DNA from: Enterobacter phage CC31
Sequence record: NC_014662.1
Reading direction: 5' to 3' (one strand)
DNA: 64,000 bases
In this document: positions 5,540 through 38,110 of the stretch, in pieces
How the letters are laid out: each line of letters starts with the position of its first letter
Position numbering within the stretch: the first letter of the stretch is position 1
The notes under the pieces: generated by a model
Databases searched by the model: none
Told to the model about the DNA's origin: nothing
Seen by the model: only the letters and a program-made list of their open reading frames with translations
Made by a program: the position numbers and the translations under genes

Positions 5540-5604
5540 ATTGATTTCCTCATTTTAACTAAGTTTGACATAAGAGATTCTATTCCGAATCTCTTATAGC
5601 AAAA

Positions 5605-5871
5605 TTAGCAGTTTTTGACGTATTCGTAGATAGCACGAGTCAGTTCAGCCGCTTCATCTTTTTCAATATCTGAAATCAGAGCATAGATAGCATTAGTGAT
5701 TGAGCTTGGGCGATGACGAGCAGCACTAATTGAAACTTCTGTCATACACGAACGACCACGAAGAACAACTTCAACGTTGTTGATTTCAATGTTCATACGT
5801 TCTTGACCACGGCTTTCAGAACGAATGAAAACTCCTAACTCGACAGTTACTTTCTTTTTCAGTGTAATCAT
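5605..5871 (-). CDS. hypothetical protein
   Basis: 88 aa ORF preceded by early-type promoter at about 5898-5928. Confidence 0.4.
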   Translation of the reverse strand: MITLKKKVTVELGVFIRSESRGQERMNIEINNVEVVLRGRSCMTEVSISAARHRPSSITNAIYALISDIEKDEAAELTRAIYEYVKNC

Positions 5872-6681: not shown

Positions 6682-7167
6682 TTATTCAGGATGTTCATTG
6701 TGTTCCTCATTCCAAGTTCCGCTGTTAATCCACAGCCTTTGATTATCACTGCCTCTCCAAAGCTTTTTAGTTGGTAGAGACTGTTCATATTTACCATCGA
6801 TAATAACATCAACATAATTTAGCAGTTCCAAGTCCTTGATATCTTCGAACTTGTATCCCGTCCACATCCAAACATCTTTGTGAGGGTGACTATTATGTAA
6901 GCACTTGAGTAGTGCTTCTATAGTTTCTCTATTGTCTGGATAAAGAGGGTCTCCACCTGTAAGAGTGATTCCTTGAATGTAATCTTTGCTTAAAAGCTCT
7001 CTGATTTCTTCAATGGTTTCACCGGTGAACTCTGTTCCATTACGTGGATTCCATGTGGATTTATTATAACATCCTTCACATTTATGCAAACACCCGGTGA
7101 CGAAAAGAACGACCCTGCAACCAGGGCCATTCACAAAATCACAAGGATAGATTCTGTCATACTTCAC
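6682..7167 (-). CDS. nrdG: anaerobic ribonucleotide reductase activating protein NrdG (radical SAM)
   Basis: 161 aa; CDFVNGPGCRVVLFVTGCLHKCEGC cysteine motif; probable GTG start; adjacent to nrdD. Confidence 0.9.
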   Translation of the reverse strand: MKYDRIYPCDFVNGPGCRVVLFVTGCLHKCEGCYNKSTWNPRNGTEFTGETIEEIRELLSKDYIQGITLTGGDPLYPDNRETIEALLKCLHNSHPHKDVWMWTGYKFEDIKDLELLNYVDVIIDGKYEQSLPTKKLWRGSDNQRLWINSGTWNEEHNEHPE

Positions 7168-8986
7168 AGTGTTTCGTCCTGTGCATTATTTCTTTGTTCT
7201 TACCAAGATTAAATCCGCGTTCAGACGGATTACCAAGATATCCACAAGTGCGTCTGATTGTGTTCATCTTTTTAGGGTCTGATTCACCGCATTCATGACA
7301 GATAAATCCATCTTCCGTTGGAGTCATTTCATGAGTTGAACCGCATGTAAAGCACTTATCAACTGGCATGTTCACACCGAAGTAATCAAGATGCTCAACA
7401 GCATAATCCCATACAGCTTCAAGGCCTTTGAGATTGTTCTTCATATCAGGAAGTTCTACATAACTGATATGACCACCTTTGGCAATAAAGTGGAAAATAG
7501 ATTCACGGTCAATTTTACCGAACGGAGAAATCTTTTCTTCTACTGAAACATGGAAGCTGTTAGTGTACCACCCTTTATCGGTGACGCCTTTAATGTCACC
7601 ATGGACTTCAGCATCAATCTTACAGAAGCGATAGCACAAGTTCTCTGCTGGAGTTGAATAAAGACTAAAAGCAAAGCCAGTCTCTTTAGTCCATTCAGCA
7701 AGATAATCGTTCAGGCATTTCAGAAGAAGCTTACCGATATCAGCACCCAATAGAGTTTGAACTTCATGGATTCCGATGTACCCTAACGAAATTGAAGAAC
7801 GACCATTTCGGAAGATGTCGAGAATCTCATCGTTTGGCTTAAGACGAACACCAAAAGCACCTTCTTGGTAAAGAATAGGAGCTACCGAAGCTGTTACACC
7901 ACGAAGCGATTCAATACGAGCTAAAAGAGCTTCTTTACAAATCTTCAAACGGTCATCAAGAATATGGAAGAACTTGGTCAAATCTGGACGACCATCAACC
8001 ATACAATCGAGTGCTACTCGTGGAAGGTTAATTGTCACTACGCCAAGATTATTACGTCCGTCAAGAATTTCTTCACCGTCTTTGTTCTTCCATACGCCAA
8101 GGAATGAACGACATCCCATTGGAGAAACTGGAACAGAAGAACCAGTGATTAGACGGTTATTCTTTGAACTAATGATGTCAGGATACATTCGTTTACTTGC
8201 ACATTCCAATGCAAGTTGTTTGATGTCATAATTCACATCAGTTGGATGAAGGTTAATTCCTTCTTCAACAAACATAACGAGCTTAGGAAAAATTGGAGTG
8301 ATTCCGTCTCGTCCAAGGCCTTTGATTCTATTTTTGAGAATAGCTTTTTGAATCATACGTTCATAATCGCTTGTGCCAGTACCAAAGGTAATTGTCACGA
8401 ATGGAGTTTGACCATTTGAGCTGAACAGAGTATTGACTTCATATTCATAAGCCTGGAATGCATCATATACGTCTTTTTCTGTTTTCTCAATCGCGTATAC
8501 GTAGTCATTGACGTGCTCAATACCGTATCTTTCTGCATCACGTAAATGCTTAAAGAAAGTCTTCTCTACAAAAGGAGCAAGCACAACATCAACATTAGCA
8601 AATGTCGTTCCACCGTATTGATGAGAAGCTACTTGAGCAGTGATTTGAGCCATGATAGCAGTTGCTACACCAATTGACTTTGGAGTCTCAATTTGAGCAT
8701 TACCAAGTTTAAATCCATTGCTGAGCATACCCTTCAAATCGACTAAGCAACAGTTAGTGAATGGAAGAGCTGGAGAATAGTCTAAGTCGTGAAAATGAAT
8801 AAGACCTTTATCATGAGCATTTAGAACAGTAGGAGAGATAACCTGACGAGCAATGTGTTTTGAAACAATTCCTGCCATCAGGTCTCGTTGAGTTGGAAAA
8901 ACACGAGAATCTTTATTAGCATTCTCATTAAGTAAGTCTTTGTTGGTACGGTTGATTAAACCCTGGATTTCTGATTCAATTGTCAT
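7157..8986 (-). CDS. nrdD: anaerobic ribonucleoside-triphosphate reductase NrdD (glycyl radical enzyme), uninterrupted
   Basis: 609 aa continuous ORF; C-terminal glycyl-radical region (RRTCGYLG) and zinc-ribbon CxxC...CxxC; T4 synteny nrdG-nrdD-49. Confidence 0.95.
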   Translation of the reverse strand: MTIESEIQGLINRTNKDLLNENANKDSRVFPTQRDLMAGIVSKHIARQVISPTVLNAHDKGLIHFHDLDYSPALPFTNCCLVDLKGMLSNGFKLGNAQIETPKSIGVATAIMAQITAQVASHQYGGTTFANVDVVLAPFVEKTFFKHLRDAERYGIEHVNDYVYAIEKTEKDVYDAFQAYEYEVNTLFSSNGQTPFVTITFGTGTSDYERMIQKAILKNRIKGLGRDGITPIFPKLVMFVEEGINLHPTDVNYDIKQLALECASKRMYPDIISSKNNRLITGSSVPVSPMGCRSFLGVWKNKDGEEILDGRNNLGVVTINLPRVALDCMVDGRPDLTKFFHILDDRLKICKEALLARIESLRGVTASVAPILYQEGAFGVRLKPNDEILDIFRNGRSSISLGYIGIHEVQTLLGADIGKLLLKCLNDYLAEWTKETGFAFSLYSTPAENLCYRFCKIDAEVHGDIKGVTDKGWYTNSFHVSVEEKISPFGKIDRESIFHFIAKGGHISYVELPDMKNNLKGLEAVWDYAVEHLDYFGVNMPVDKCFTCGSTHEMTPTEDGFICHECGESDPKKMNTIRRTCGYLGNPSERGFNLGKNKEIMHRTKHCEV

Positions 8987-28064: not shown

Positions 28065-28387
28065 TTAGATAATCCCGCTATATACACCCTCAATAATGTG
28101 TCACGATATTCTTCGCATACATTCATATCAGGCGCATTATCACATAACGACTCAAGGTCTTTAGCCTTACGAGCCACCAAGGTAGACCATTTAAAGCGGC
28201 TACCAGAATCAGTTTGTCCTTCAGCGTAAGTTTTGTCAAAGTCAAATGACAAAATGTTCAAACACTCCGTATTAGTCTTTGTGCAGAATTGCTTTGCTAA
28301 TGTCAAAGAATCATCTTGTTCAGTAGAAAAATCAACTTTACACCCAGATAGAGCAAAAACTACTAGAAGTACAAACAACTTTTTCAT
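28061..28387 (-). CDS. putative lipoprotein
   Basis: 108 aa; MKKLFVLLVVFALSGC lipobox. Confidence 0.5.
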   Translation of the reverse strand: MKKLFVLLVVFALSGCKVDFSTEQDDSLTLAKQFCTKTNTECLNILSFDFDKTYAEGQTDSGSRFKWSTLVARKAKDLESLCDNAPDMNVCEEYRDTLLRVYIAGLSK

Positions 28388-28935
28388 TATTCCACCGTAT
28401 AATGAAGCATTTTACGAGATTTCAAGTAATTCGCCTTTGCTAATACTTCAGAGGCGTACTTGTTACCGGCTTTCCACTTGTTTCCTGCGTTGTATGACGC
28501 TATGGCTTTTCTCATATCACCGTTATGACGGTCCAGCCAATAACTTAACTCAATATACGCCCAAGCGGCGGAGTGCTTCCGGTTCTTTGCCATGCGGATG
28601 ATTTCTGCGTCTGTCATTGACCATCCGGCTTGTTTAACTCTTTCCCTGAGTGTAGGAAGATAATTTTGAAATATCCCGTAAGCGTGATGCCCGTGTTTAC
28701 CAGTTGTACGTAAGCCTGCAGAACTTTCCTGCCAGACTAGTGCAGCCATAATGTAACCAAGTCCATTGTTGTCATACCGCTTACTATGGTCTTTATACTT
28801 CCCATTCTTCTGAAATTGTTCACCAAACGAATATGCATATTGCAAATTGTCGAGTTGGACATTACTGAAGGTGTGTTCGGACGCAAATCCTAAAGACGAA
28901 ACTAGGAGTAACGCCGCGCATAGAGCTTTTTTCAT
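28387..28935 (-). CDS. exported lytic-transglycosylase-like (SLT-domain) protein
   Basis: 182 aa; signal peptide MKKALCAALLLVSSLGFA; WQESSAG...AYGIFQ...YNAG motifs typical of family 1 lytic transglycosylases. Confidence 0.5.
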   Translation of the reverse strand: MKKALCAALLLVSSLGFASEHTFSNVQLDNLQYAYSFGEQFQKNGKYKDHSKRYDNNGLGYIMAALVWQESSAGLRTTGKHGHHAYGIFQNYLPTLRERVKQAGWSMTDAEIIRMAKNRKHSAAWAYIELSYWLDRHNGDMRKAIASYNAGNKWKAGNKYASEVLAKANYLKSRKMLHYTVE

Positions 28936-28957: not shown

Positions 28958-29422
28958 TTATAACTTGATAATCTTTGTGCTGATTTTACCTTTCAAGCGT
29001 TTATCATTTACGAATGCCATGCGACATTGCATGGAGTGACCGCGGAACGGGTGTTCTGGGTTTGGTAGAGAGACAGTCATTCCAAGCCATAGAGTACCAT
29101 CAGTGATTTCCAAACGCTGAGGCCTGTATTCTACTTCTGGGTCAATTTCCGATGGGTCAATAGGAAGCATCGGCATTTCTAAGAACTCGTGAATTTCTGT
29201 TACGTGATTGTGTACTTTGTGGAACAGAGCGAACACATACTCTTCATCAATCTCCCGTTGGATAGCACGGTCCAAGAGATGATTAGAATATTTAATAAAG
29301 AAAGCTGGGATACCAGCAGATGCGCAAGCACTACGTATAGAATCGTTTACACTCTTGAACTCAGTCTCAAAGCGACGACGTAGCTTGTTTCGGCGGATGA
29401 ATACTTCTGGATTAGTTGTCAT
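28958..29422 (-). CDS. regB: RegB site-specific endoribonuclease
   Basis: MTTNPEVFIRRNKLRRRFETEF...LLDRAIQREIDEEYVF...EYRPQRLEITDGTLWLG...LQCRMAFVN matches T4 RegB; start trimmed from TTG to ATG 29422 with AAAGGAG RBS. Confidence 0.9.
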   Translation of the reverse strand: MTTNPEVFIRRNKLRRRFETEFKSVNDSIRSACASAGIPAFFIKYSNHLLDRAIQREIDEEYVFALFHKVHNHVTEIHEFLEMPMLPIDPSEIDPEVEYRPQRLEITDGTLWLGMTVSLPNPEHPFRGHSMQCRMAFVNDKRLKGKISTKIIKL

Positions 29423-29448
29423 TTTCAATCTCCTTTGTTGATAGGGCT

Positions 29449-29478: not shown

Positions 29479-29750
29479 TAGTAGTTTTGGTCGTCATAGA
29501 ACACTTGAAGCAGAACGTTGTTACGTAACCGCTTTGTGTCAGCTAAACGTTGTCTAAGCTTGGAGATTTTGTCCTGTACCCGGTTAAACTCTTCTGAGGT
29601 TGACGGGTCATGAATCTTCATAGCCTCATCCACAAGCTGCTCCATCTTTTCTTCCATAGCATTAATAGCTTCAGAGAAAGATTCGGAGACTTTGTTGCGG
29701 ATAGACATTAGTACTTTTCTTCTGGTTGAAACACTGAACGGCATGCCCAC
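29478..29750 (-). CDS. hypothetical protein
   Basis: 90 aa helical ORF. Confidence 0.4.
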   Translation of the reverse strand: MGMPFSVSTRRKVLMSIRNKVSESFSEAINAMEEKMEQLVDEAMKIHDPSTSEEFNRVQDKISKLRQRLADTKRLRNNVLLQVFYDDQNY

Positions 29751-29989
29751 ATAGATGCTTCTTTAAGGTGCTGAATAGCATTACGAATTTGAGTGATACG
29801 CTCATGAGCCAAATCAAACTCTTCGTCACTAATTTTATCAACATCTAAATCCATGTATACTTTTACATGTTCTTCTTCAAGAGCTTTAAAAATCAGGCCA
29901 AGACGAAGTTCAGCATCTTTAATAGCATTCACTTTACCGATTTTATCTTCAGTATGTGGTTTATAGCCTTTGATATCTTCAATTGACAT
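29708..29989 (-). CDS. hypothetical protein
   Basis: 93 aa ORF. Confidence 0.4.
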   Translation of the reverse strand: MSIEDIKGYKPHTEDKIGKVNAIKDAELRLGLIFKALEEEHVKVYMDLDVDKISDEEFDLAHERITQIRNAIQHLKEASMWACRSVFQPEEKY

Positions 29990-30351
29990 TACATTTCCTT
30001 GGTGAAAGTACGTGCAATAACGTCACGCTGCTGTTCTGACGTCAGAGAATTAAATCGGACAGCATAACCAGAAACACGAATAGTCAGCTGAGGATATTTT
30101 TCTGGATGTTGAACTGCATCTTCTAAAGTTTCTTTAGTCAGAACATTCACGTTCAGATGTTGGCCACCTTCAACTTTAACTACAGGTTGACTTTCAATTC
30201 CAACTTCTCGAGATTCAAGTCCAAAGAAAGTTTCTACATCAACAATAGAATCTTCTGCCAAAGTTTTAGATACAATCACACGGGCTTTATCACCATCTTC
30301 AAGATAAATTGTGCCTTTATGAGTGCCATTCAAAATTTGATATGCGTTCAT
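29989..30351 (-). CDS. grcA: autonomous glycyl radical cofactor (GrcA/YfiD-like)
   Basis: 120 aa; [57 protein letters not shown] contains the RVSGY glycyl-radical signature and closely resembles enterobacterial GrcA as recalled; ATG with AAGGAA RBS. Confidence 0.85.
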
Positions 30352-30360
30352 AGTAGTTCC

Positions 30361-30597
30361 TTATGGGTATTGAATTTCTTCGTCAGTCTCTTTATCATAC
30401 TCACGAATTTTGATTGGTTCATTAATTCCGTAACCACTTATAAGAAGTCCAGTTTTAGCATCTTCCCACTGTTTAGTTTCTTCATTCCACACACCATTAG
30501 CGTGTGCTTCCATTAAATCTTGTTCGCCTTGGTTTGAAAACCAGTCGCAGAAAGATTTAACCAAGTGGTCGGGGACGTCGATAATAATTTGCGCCAT
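30361..30597 (-). CDS. hypothetical protein
   Basis: 78 aa acidic ORF. Confidence 0.35.
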   Translation of the reverse strand: MAQIIIDVPDHLVKSFCDWFSNQGEQDLMEAHANGVWNEETKQWEDAKTGLLISGYGINEPIKIREYDKETDEEIQYP

Positions 30598-30890
30598 GTT
30601 GGCTCCAGAGAAATGACCCTGCGGTCGTAAGTAATTAAGCTTGAAGTTTTGATGCCTTTACATGGGCCAGAGATAAACTCTACTTCAAACCATGGATGCT
30701 CATTCATCAGACCTACATCCGGTGAAGTGCAGAGAAATAATGAACCTTTAAAAGGCCCATCTAAAAATCTATACAGCTTAGGTTCAAGAACTGCACCATC
30801 TGAAAACTTAATATGCAAAATATTAATCAAAGATTCTATATCACATTTTCCGGTAGAGCGCAAGAACCTGATATATTCACTTGTAGTCAT
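30513..30890 (-). CDS. hypothetical protein
   Basis: Track ORF 30513..30932 trimmed to ATG about 30890 (MTTSEYIRFL) because a hairpin occupies 30895-30915. Confidence 0.35.
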   Translation of the reverse strand: MTTSEYIRFLRSTGKCDIESLINILHIKFSDGAVLEPKLYRFLDGPFKGSLFLCTSPDVGLMNEHPWFEVEFISGPCKGIKTSSLITYDRRVISLEPTWRKLLSTSPTTWLNLSATGFQTKANKI

Positions 30891-30928
30891 TCCAAGAGCC
30901 CGAAGGCCCTTATTAAAATTTTCTTTCA

Positions 30929-31528
30929 TCATTGCATTCCTATCACAAAGAATAATGGCATCATCTCTTCACCGCTAATGTGTGATTGATGAACACATGC
31001 ATAAAAAGGACCTTTGAAATGAGCTTCGTAGAACTTTTCCATTTCAGGGAGTTTCATTGGTTCTTCTATAATATACAAGATTCTGTTAAGCGTTCGGCCA
31101 CGGGCTTTTGAACCACCATTACTCAAGAAACTTCGCACAGTGTCCATGATAATCATGCGTTTAGCTTCATCTGGATTTGCTTGATGAATGAGTTCTTTCT
31201 CATAACAAGCTCGTATTCTTCTTGCTGTTTCTTCGGAGTTTCGTTGATGGGTGCTAATAATCCAGACAGTTCCACCGTCATGTAACCAGTCCGCTGCAAA
31301 TTCAGCAATAGCTTTAGTTTTACCTGACTGACGCCCGCCGTCGATTTTTAGCGTAGCATATTCGCGTAGAATATCTATAGGAGTGTAATGACTTTCTTTG
31401 AGGATTTCTATACAATCATCTGCGCGGATTTTAAATGCGTGCATCAGGGATAGATATGGAGCAAATAGAGATTTCGTTTTCATAAAGTTACCGTTAGTGA
31501 GGGCCTTCCATGGCTCAAGGATTTCCAT
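30929..31528 (-). CDS. hypothetical P-loop protein
   Basis: 199 aa; GGRQSGKT Walker A-like motif; no clear RBS. Confidence 0.4.
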   Translation of the reverse strand: MEILEPWKALTNGNFMKTKSLFAPYLSLMHAFKIRADDCIEILKESHYTPIDILREYATLKIDGGRQSGKTKAIAEFAADWLHDGGTVWIISTHQRNSEETARRIRACYEKELIHQANPDEAKRMIIMDTVRSFLSNGGSKARGRTLNRILYIIEEPMKLPEMEKFYEAHFKGPFYACVHQSHISGEEMMPLFFVIGMQ

Positions 31529-31975: not shown

Positions 31976-32392
31976 TTAGTTGTAAATAGCCTTACCATAA
32001 TGTTTATACCACTTAGGCCGTTGAGCAATTTTTTCGTCCAGACGTGCTTGAGAAATTTTAAGAGCGTCAGAAGTTGGAATGTAATCATTACGCCACTCGA
32101 CCGGAATATCACTAATGTCCTGGGCAGTTGTGTCCTGGATTTTAAAACCTCGTTTTAAACATTCAGCAATAATGTTGATTTGGCGTTTATGCAAGAACTC
32201 AAGTTTATCATAAAAGAAAGTAACATGACCTGTACCTAAAATGAAAACCGAAGAGATTTTAAAATCCTTAAGCTTTTTACCATTTTGAACATGCTTACGA
32301 ACGGCACCAAAAACACGTGGCAATTCACGATACTCAGCCATAAGATGTTGGTCGGCCAGTTCAGATACTAAAGTTAAGTTAATGCGTGTCAT
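31976..32392 (-). CDS. denV: DenV endonuclease V (pyrimidine dimer DNA glycosylase)
   Basis: 138 aa; [34 protein letters not shown]...[10 protein letters not shown] nearly matches T4 endo V. Confidence 0.95.
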
Positions 32393-32418: not shown

Positions 32419-32452
32419 GAGTATCATAACATGGACAAACGGAGATGTAAAC
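32419..32452 (-). promoter_or_regulatory. early promoter for denV
   Basis: Minus strand GTTTAC then GATACT-type -10 within GGTATGAG dyad, upstream of denV ATG 32392. Confidence 0.45.
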
Positions 32453-37001: not shown

Positions 37002-37064
37002 AGTGTTCCTCCAGTGATTCTGGGGAAACTTTTCAGTTTCCCCATATATTACCATTAACAGCTG

Positions 37065-37137
37065 CTAGTGTACCTGGACTCGAACCAGGGAATCGTAGAA
37101 TCAAAATCTACTGCCTTACCAACTTGGCTATACCCCA
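37065..37137 (-). tRNA. tRNA-Gln (anticodon UUG)
   Basis: Minus strand TGGGGTATAGCCAAGTTGGTAAGGCA-GTAGA-TTTTGAT-TCTAC-...CCTGGTTCGAGTCCAGG; anticodon loop gives TTG; coordinates approximate. Confidence 0.7.
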
Positions 37138-37143
37138 ACTGTT

Positions 37144-37220
37144 TGGAGGCGGGTGATGGACTCGAACCATCGCGTAACGGGATATGAACCCGTCATTCTA
37201 CCAACTGAAGTTAACCCGCA
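37144..37220 (-). tRNA. tRNA with CAU anticodon (Met or lysidine-type Ile)
   Basis: Anticodon arm ACGGG-TTCATAT-CCCGT, T arm GATGGTTCGAGTCCATC, CCA encoded; pos 1:72 mismatch and irregular D arm lower confidence. Confidence 0.55.
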
Positions 37221-37340
37221 CTTATCCGGATTCCTGAAGTACAACGGCTGCTTTATGTAGAACTCACCTATTGTGAGGGAACAAAATCACTGGTCCTGGC
37301 ATTAATTATGGACCACCATCTTCAGGAACTGCCTCGTATT
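37221..37340 (-). ncRNA. structured spacer in tRNA cluster, candidate small stable RNA
   Basis: About 120 nt without ORF or tRNA; long-range complement ttcctgaagt/acttcaggaa and internal hairpin GGTCC...GGACC; T4 carries two small RNAs of unknown function in its tRNA cluster. Confidence 0.3.
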
Positions 37341-37416
37341 TGGCGGACCTAACGGGATTCGAACCCGTGACTCTCACGTGACAGGCGAGTATTTTCACCG
37401 CTGAAACTATAGGTCC
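37341..37416 (-). tRNA. tRNA-Asp (anticodon GUC)
   Basis: 76 nt with CCA; acceptor GGACCTA/TAGGTCC; anticodon arm CTCGC-CTGTCAC-GTGAG; T arm ACGGGTTCGAATCCCGT. Confidence 0.7.
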
Positions 37417-37658
37417 AAATTATCTTTCGTGATTATGTGAATCCCTCAGGTTTTCCGGAAAACCGAATAGGCGACAAAAGCTCTCATATACCCGTGCACA
37501 GATATAATCTTTGTTAACTAGTGTCTGAATCAGTATAATCCGAAAGATAACTTTCGGCGCCGTATTTAATTTGAGATATGTAGTTATCGTTGAGGGAACT
37601 CATATTCAGGGATTAACATGCCGACGACTTTGTCAGAACGTCTTCCAACTTCTATATT
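37417..37658 (-). ncRNA. structured spacer in tRNA cluster, candidate small stable RNA(s)
   Basis: About 240 nt without ORF or canonical T-loop; hairpins GGTTTTCC/GGAAAACC and CCGAAAG-N4-CTTTCGG. Confidence 0.3.
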
Positions 37659-37743
37659 TGGCGGGTCGTGCAGGTATCGAACCTGCCTAGTCATTTCTGA
37701 CACGGATTAACAGTCCGCCGCTTACCCTCTCAGCCAACGACCC
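37659..37743 (-). tRNA. tRNA-Asn-like (anticodon GUU) with unusually long variable arm
   Basis: 85 nt with CCA; perfect acceptor GGGTCGT/ACGACCC; anticodon arm GCGGA-CTGTTAA-TCCGT identical to the recalled E. coli tRNA-Asn arm; 15-nt variable region GTCAGAAATGACTAG. Confidence 0.6.
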
Positions 37744-37748
37744 AAATT

Positions 37749-37823
37749 TGGTTCTCCGTAAGAGAATTGAACTCTTCTTTCCGACGTGAAAGGCCGGCGT
37801 CCTAACCGATAGACGAACGGAGA
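37749..37823 (-). tRNA. tRNA-Glu (anticodon UUC)
   Basis: Acceptor TCTCCGT/ACGGAGA; TCGTCTA...GGAC D arm; anticodon arm CCGGC-CTTTCAC-GTCGG; T arm AAGAGTTCAATTCTCTT; CCA encoded. Confidence 0.75.
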
Positions 37824-37824
37824 T

Positions 37825-37902
37825 TGGTAGGACGTGAGGGAGTTGAACCCATCGACATTCCGATTAAAAGTCGGATGCTCTAACCAACTGAGCTAACGTC
37901 CT
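37825..37902 (-). tRNA. tRNA-Lys (anticodon UUU)
   Basis: Acceptor AGGACGT/ACGTCCT; D arm TAGCTCAGTTGGTTAGAGC; anticodon arm TCCGA-CTTTTAA-TCGGA; T stem pairs imperfectly in my reading. Confidence 0.6.
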
Positions 37903-37940
37903 GTAGATATTTATAATAACAAAAATATCTTTAAGCAAAT

Positions 37941-38016
37941 TGGTGGGAATAACTGGACTCGAACCAGTGACCTAACGATTATCGGTCGTTTGCTCTACCA
38001 ACTGAGCTATATTCCC
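37941..38016 (-). tRNA. tRNA-Ile (anticodon GAU)
   Basis: 76 nt: GGGAATATAGCTCAGTTGGTAGAGCA-AACGA-CCGATAA-TCGTT-AGGTC-ACTGGTTCGAGTCCAGT-TATTCCC-A-CCA. Confidence 0.7.
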
Positions 38017-38022
38017 TGAATT

Positions 38023-38110
38023 TGGTGGGGAGTGATGGAGTCGAACCACCCGAGTCGCAATGACAACAGATTTACAGTCTGCACCGCTACCTCTACGGAA
38101 TTAACTCCCC
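38023..38110 (-). tRNA. tRNA-Tyr (anticodon GUA), type II
   Basis: Acceptor GGGGAGT/ACTCCCC; anticodon arm GCAGA-CTGTAAA-TCTGT; long variable arm with GTC/GAC stem; T arm GGTGGTTCGACTCCATC; CCA encoded. Confidence 0.7.

Follow-up and report, generated by a model that had tools for sequence, protein, structure and literature searches.

Pyruvate formate-lyase (PFL) is an enzyme of about 760 amino acids with a ten-stranded barrel and the catalytic residues Cys418 and Cys419. Once damaged by O2, it can be restored by small spare-part proteins, E. coli YfiD (GrcA) and Y06I of phage T4, as described in PMC8683613, which cites Wagner et al. 2001. In vitro, PFL-AE installs the glycyl radical on YfiD or Y06I, after which the activated protein joins cleaved PFL in a complex; the same source presents these two as the only validated spare parts. 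YfiD's N-terminal half aids both radical installation and binding to cleaved PFL, and is disordered by NMR (PMC8683613). In phages, a Gly_radical match in vs.6 was already noted in six of six T4-like genomes (Nolan et al, 2006; PMC1524935). The gene of Enterobacter phage CC31 analyzed here is therefore a known one: its T4 orthologue Y06I was characterized biochemically in 2001 and the gene is widely annotated. As members of the family are annotated in hundreds of phage genomes, it carries little weight as a discovery, but it would illustrate nicely how an auxiliary metabolic gene of a phage can repair a host enzyme instead of replacing it.

We analyzed a stretch of 64,000 nucleotides of CC31 (NC_014662.1), hereafter the window (Table 1). 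The product of vs.6 matched the Pfam family Gly_radical (E=1.6e-17, 64 bits), and its best NCBIfam model was TIGR04365, GrcA (E=2.5e-46, 157 bits), with an alignment covering residues 18-120. It also matched E. coli GrcA/YfiD (PDB 6owr; E=2.6e-40), the last 63 residues of PFL (E=2e-25) and, over its full length, phrog_1209 (E=1.5e-58, residues 1-120 on profile positions 1-121). Judged from these matches, CC31 vs.6 is a clear GrcA/YfiD homologue, with a similarity far beyond chance. As in that family (TIGR04365 / IPR011140), the ORF is small and stands alone, without a catalytic barrel and with genes adjoining on both sides, and its N-terminal half is homologous to the N-terminal half of GrcA, so it is not merely a PFL tail. 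A preliminary description of this DNA had proposed a phage-encoded autonomous glycyl-radical protein of the GrcA/YfiD type with its radical glycine in an RVSGY context. The agreement between the Pfam, NCBIfam and 6owr matches bears this out, as do the location of Gly95 within residues 92-96 and the significant similarity both to GrcA and to the PFL C-terminus. The same description had suggested a survey of T4-like genomes; in a collection of phages, the gene proved widespread, with homologues in 1,586 of the 50,697 records searched. The carriers include T4, T2, the RB phages, T4-like phages of Klebsiella, Yersinia and Aeromonas, T5-like phages and jumbo phages.

The score of CC31 Vs.6 lies below the equivalog cut-off of TIGR04365 (170 bits), which E. 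coli GrcA exceeds with 234 bits, and those of PG7 (152 bits) and T4 Y06I (151 bits) are lower still. Since the validated T4 protein itself does not reach the cut-off, the latter drops the whole phage branch and says nothing on function. That the NCBIfam threshold leaves out a proven phage member, together with all Karamvirus copies (152-157 bits), is a mildly new observation. Labels in the phage records are inconsistent: many read GrcA, and others pyruvate formate-lyase, acetyltransferase, ribonucleotide reductase subunit or hypothetical protein. We rejected an assignment of CC31 Vs.6 as pyruvate formate-lyase or formate C-acetyltransferase, as only its last 63 residues match and it scored 85 bits against TIGR01255 (pyruvate formate-lyase), whose cut-off is 994 bits. 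Because Vs.6 lacks the catalytic barrel of PFL, the many phage records that call it "pyruvate formate-lyase" misname it.

Table 1. Features of the CC31 window discussed in the text, and the T4 gene used for comparison (positions are those of the window unless another locus is named).
Feature	Position	Strand	Remarks
CC31 vs.6 / Y06I orthologue, CDS including TAA stop	29989..30351	-	120 aa, ATG start
RVSGY radical loop, residues 92-96	30064..30078	-	
Codon of radical Gly95	30067..30069	-	GGT
C-terminal glycyl-radical domain, aa 58-120	29992..30180	-	mimic of PFL residues 697-759
N-terminal half, aa 1-57	30181..30351	-	"phage-type", yet homologous to the bacterial GrcA N-half
Shine-Dalgarno-like AAGGA	30358..30362	-	6 nt upstream of vs.6 ATG; read from the sequence (…CCATAAGGAACTACTATG)
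vs.4 (Acb2/Tad1-hairpin family), downstream of vs.6	29708..29989	-	ATG overlaps vs.6 stop (TAATG)
regB	28958..29428		
phrog_1488 (Vs.8-like) gene	30929..31528		
denV	31976..32392		
Best sigma-70-like promoter candidate	32423..32451	-	TTTACA-17-TATGAT with TG; in front of denV
nrdD, class III (glycyl-radical) ribonucleotide reductase	7157..8986	-	Pfam NRDD 5e-165
nrdG, radical-SAM activase of NrdD	6682..7167	-	Fer4_12/Radical_SAM and phrog_626
T4 vs.6	L003 5558..5920		3' half 5558..5740, compared with E. coli grcA L001 1546..1730

The region around the gene is 91-94% identical at the nucleotide level to Karamvirus phages (Straboviridae, Tevenvirinae) of Enterobacter, Cronobacter and Klebsiella aerogenes. 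The order regB - vs.3/vs.4 - vs.6 - vs.7 - vs.8 - denV, all on one strand, is common to the CC31 window, PG7 and T4, and according to the PG7 and T4 annotation the slot of vs.6 follows denV, vs.8 and vs.7 and precedes vs.4, vs.3 and regB. In both phages the gene at the corresponding slot is vs.6, and its annotation reads "autonomous glycyl radical cofactor GrcA". T4 Vs.6 (NP_049730) also has 120 residues, aligns with the CC31 protein colinearly and without gaps at 78.3% identity (94/120), belongs to the same phrog_1209 and has an identical 13-residue core. By alignment and position, near regB and denV and between vs.7 and vs.4/vs.5, T4 vs.6 and the CC31 gene are syntenic orthologues. The two loci differ in that a small additional gene, vs.5, separates vs.6 from vs.4 in T4, whereas CC31 vs.6 overlaps vs.4 directly, and the proteins differ in their C-terminal tails (TKEM in CC31, TESL in T4). 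PG7 Vs.6 (L002 7003..7356) has 117 residues and ends in ...RTFT*, lacking the last three residues, which are KEM in CC31 and ESL in T4 and E. coli.

The overlap between the stop codon of vs.6 and the start of vs.4 points to one operon, probably with translational coupling. On the other side, the Shine-Dalgarno-like element overlaps the TAA stop (30361..30363) of the preceding ORF, and with overlaps at both junctions the gene is part of a polycistronic block. The promoter candidate in front of denV is a possible source of a leftward transcript that would include vs.6; between this candidate and vs.6 we found no MotA-box or late-promoter motifs.

Compared with E. coli GrcA/YfiD (P68066), likewise a small standalone protein, CC31 Vs.6 is 7 residues shorter and is 67.6% identical over 111 aligned residues, rising to 87% over the C-terminal 63. 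The N-terminal halves are homologous end to end, with Q5, R24, K29, D34 and R48 conserved, but are only ~37-43% identical, and they begin differently: MxAYQILxGxHKGTIY in the phage type and MITGIQITKAxNxxLLNSFWLL in the bacterial type. The genomic settings also differ, as E. coli grcA sits between ung and eamB and CC31 vs.6 lies in a phage early-gene block. The C-terminal radical domain of PflB (residues 697-759; PDB 2pfl/1h16) is 75% identical to Vs.6 over 63 residues and has the same radical loop, whereas the ~700-residue catalytic barrel of PflB, with Cys418/Cys419, has no counterpart in the phage protein. GrcA-like proteins of T5-like (~52% identical) and jumbo (63-66% identical) enterobacterial phages have in common with CC31 Vs.6 the small size, the radical domain and the phage-type N-terminus, but their genes lie in unrelated genome contexts.

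The two halves of the protein differ in conservation. In an alignment of 77 homologues, the C-terminal half contained 38 invariant positions, including the whole of RVSGYAVRF (R92-F100), and the near-invariant columns of the N-terminal half were Q5, R24, K29, D34 and R48. GrcA and PFL share 48 positions, of which CC31 Vs.6 retains 46, and six of the eight differences of Vs.6 from GrcA fall at sites where GrcA and PFL already differ (P=0.0015). The N-terminal half (aa 1-57) is 68% identical to that of T4, and its type is also found, more distantly, in jumbo-phage proteins. Both halves are under purifying selection: dN/dS was 0.12-0.17 overall (0.12 against PG7) and 0.26-0.30 in the N-terminal half; in the comparison with T4 it was 0.30 in the N-terminal half and 0.08 in the C-terminal half.

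In the AF2 model, the C-terminal domain superposes on 6owr and 2pfl with an rmsd of 2.4 Å over 52 columns, and the N-terminal half is predicted as a five-strand beta domain (pLDDT ~85-90) with weak matches to KOW/SH3-like folds. A phage-specific folded N-terminal domain was nevertheless rejected, as a control run on E. coli GrcA predicted the same beta-rich half, which by NMR is disordered. The predicted beta fold may be adopted only on PFL binding.

Recent capture from a host, as the preliminary description had suggested, is not supported for the CC31 gene. The closest relatives of CC31 Vs.6 are phage proteins (97, 93, 91 and 78% identical). Bacterial GrcAs form a flat plateau at 58-69% identity that spans Enterobacterales and Pasteurellaceae, with the best at ~65-69%; the identity to bacterial GrcA could thus be quantified as envisaged, but no genus stood out as the likely donor. 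The 189 nt that encode the radical domain were 71-79.4% identical to the corresponding sequences of 80 bacterial species and of E. coli grcA. There was no close donor among the 80 bacterial grcA loci and the best C-terminal match (P0026, see below), and a search of the phages with Enterobacter grcA gave no Karamvirus match at megablast level. The GC3 of CC31 vs.6 is phage-like, at 0.22 for the gene, 0.16 for its N-terminal part and 0.27 for its C-terminal part, compared with an average of 0.31 ± 0.06 for the long ORFs of the window and 0.40-0.41 for E. coli grcA. Moreover, the fixed syntenic slot in T4, PG7 and CC31 argues for long residence in the lineage. Taken from these sequence comparisons, CC31 vs.6 is old and phage-adapted. 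The opposite reading, in which vs.6 is a "moron", a host grcA acquired not long ago and mirroring no more than the last host, draws on the GrcA descent of Vs.6 along its full length and on the near-copy of E. coli grcA that forms the 3' half of the gene in E. coli T4-like phages, which shows that host-to-phage transfer does happen in this family. We regard it as extremely improbable for CC31, given the identities and GC3 values above (the 3' patch of T4 vs.6 also lies at 0.40), the position conserved across genera and the N-terminus common to T4 and jumbo phages.

Relationships were read from identity tables instead of a bootstrap tree. In neighbor-joining analyses, the 12 closest T-even sequences were recovered as a clade in 34 of 200 replicates at full length, 45 of 200 with the N-terminal half and none of 200 with the C-terminal half; we attribute this weak support to the shortness of the protein and to the interleaving of other phage sequences. 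The GrcA whose C-terminal half is most like that of CC31 (P0026) is 92% identical there at the amino acid level but only 73.5% at the nucleotide level, and has a bacterial-type N-terminus. It is encoded at L084 3001..3381, on a 152-kb contig of 25% GC from Logan SRR10692450, and its neighbors there, T5orf172, SNF2-helicase and DUF4326 genes, are not those of a bacterial grcA. In NCBI, a member of its cluster bears the label Shigella flexneri, probably through contamination.

The 3' half of the gene in E. coli T4-likes has a different history. In T4 vs.6, the last ~180-185 nt are 94.7% identical to E. coli grcA; over the 63 C-terminal codons, amino acid identity is 95%, 58 of 63 third positions are identical and GC3 is 0.40. 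This patch has sharp edges, one near codon 60, where YfiD has its domain boundary, and the other at the stop codon; the 5' half is phage-like (GC3 0.19). About 608 records of E. coli/Shigella T4-like phages have 95-98% identity over nt 200-384 of E. coli grcA. Near-identity of this extent points to replacement, from host to phage, of the radical-domain half in that branch. In contrast, CC31 vs.6 has no such patch: in the same region it is 79-80% identical at the nucleotide level to both T4 and E. coli, and thus looks like the unconverted form. The pairing of an old, phage-adapted copy in the CC31 lineage with an E. coli grcA 3' patch in E. coli T4-likes is, again, mildly new. One could go further and picture vs.6 as a two-module "host-compatibility cassette", with a vertically inherited phage N-terminal half and a radical-domain half that can be overwritten by the grcA allele of the current host, CC31 carrying the unconverted, long-resident form; we hold this to be quite unlikely. 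Less likely still is an extension in which the divergent N-terminal half would let Vs.6 receive its radical from phage NrdG or work with glycyl-radical enzymes beyond PflB.

Regarding function, CC31 Vs.6 is very probably, like its orthologue Y06I, a phage version of the GrcA/YfiD spare part that repairs host PflB. By homology, host PflA would install the radical on Gly95 in the RVSGYAV loop, and the activated protein would dock into PflB whose C-terminal radical domain has been cleaved by O2 at Gly734. After T4-type host shut-off the infected cell could presumably make neither new PflB nor new GrcA, and a spare part made by the phage might keep the existing PflB pool working in a microaerobic infection. 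Working PflB would in turn sustain ATP and acetyl-CoA, as well as formate for phage NrdD. For CC31, our analysis shows homology and orthology, a syntenic position, retention of the residues that match PFL, and purifying selection; that PFL-AE activates the protein and that cleaved PFL is rescued is known from T4 Y06I and E. coli YfiD only. Counted against the spare-part reading are the score below the TIGR04365 cut-off, although T4 Y06I scores lower still, and the divergence of the N-terminal half: YfiD requires this half to bind cleaved PFL, and in CC31 it is only ~40% identical to bacterial GrcA. A literature search found no paper reporting tests of vs.6 mutants.

The main alternatives concern the partner of Vs.6. 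The preliminary description had drawn attention to nrdD and nrdG in the same phage, and both genes were found with the expected family matches, nrdG being the only activase-like gene in the 64-kb window, which holds no second GrcA-like gene either. Vs.6 might then be radicalized by phage NrdG and replace an O2-cleaved NrdD C-terminus. NrdD, likewise a glycyl-radical enzyme, is cut by O2 as well (at Gly580 in T4, according to a reference listed in PMC13450708), a role of vs.6 in nucleotide metabolism was speculated by Nolan et al (2006; PMC1524935), and spare parts for other glycyl-radical enzymes are considered conceivable (PMC8683613). However, Vs.6 had no similarity to the NrdD of CC31 by BLASTP (best E=12), the NrdD radical motif RRTCGYLG is unrelated to RVSGYAV, and the two loci lie ~21 kb apart. 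Vs.6 instead mimics the C-terminus of PFL (75% identity) and GrcA (87%), keeping nearly all of the positions that these two share, and T4 Y06I works with PFL and PFL-AE in the experiments recounted in PMC8683613. The suggestion of a spare part for the phage's own NrdD is thus not supported by sequence and we consider it very improbable; the lack of similarity to the NrdD radical domain makes host PFL the most likely partner. Vs.6 is probably linked to NrdD only indirectly, if at all, through the formate that PFL produces, which serves class III ribonucleotide reductase as hydrogen donor and reductant (Mulliez 1995, as listed in PMC13450708). The connection of vs.6 with nrdD and nrdG would hence be metabolic and not physical.

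If the partner is a host enzyme, the target could be wider than, or different from, cleaved PflB: Vs.6 might act on TdcE (2-ketobutyrate formate-lyase), or radicalize PflB that is intact yet inactive and thereby raise formate and acetyl-CoA. Every E. coli genome has at least two places (median 3) that resemble the query at the DNA level; the matches inspected were those in grcA, and the others may correspond to pflB and tdcE. Such a target, which we regard as unlikely, extends the repair of PflB rather than contradicting it. A role as decoy or inhibitor, soaking up host PflA or blocking the PflB active site to stop fermentation, could be entertained on account of the N-terminal half, whose divergence from bacterial GrcA makes altered binding possible. 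However, the entire loop, radical glycine included, is intact and invariant, a mere decoy would have no need of 46 of 48 PFL-matching residues kept under a dN/dS of 0.08, and T4 Y06I, as reported in PMC8683613, restores activity and does not inhibit it. We therefore give inhibition hardly any credence.

Other genes of the region showed features of their own. The Vs.4 homologue matches the Pfam family PF24729 (Acb2/Tad1 hairpin, 59.8 bits), a family of anti-CBASS cyclic-nucleotide sponges. At the slot of vs.7, CC31 has two ORFs on the minus strand, 30361..30597 and 30513..30932, overlapping by 85 nt, whereas vs.7 is a single gene in PG7 (156 aa) and in T4 (109 aa). Their family matches differ, with phrog_1986 and the first half of phrog_17468 for the 78-aa ORF and phrog_2049 for the 139-aa one, which may reflect a difference in gene content or a fusion/fission. 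In the Vs.1 homologue (28387..28935, minus strand), Pfam identifies an SLT lytic-transglycosylase domain (25.7 bits), and the N-terminus looks like a signal sequence, both features having been noted for T4 vs.1 (Nolan et al, 2006; PMC1524935). Finally, ARAGORN identified a cluster of seven tRNA genes (Gln, Met, Asp, Asn, Glu, Lys and Ile) at 37064..38110 on the minus strand, and Rfam alone reported an eighth tRNA-like match at 38026..38110 (39 bits).
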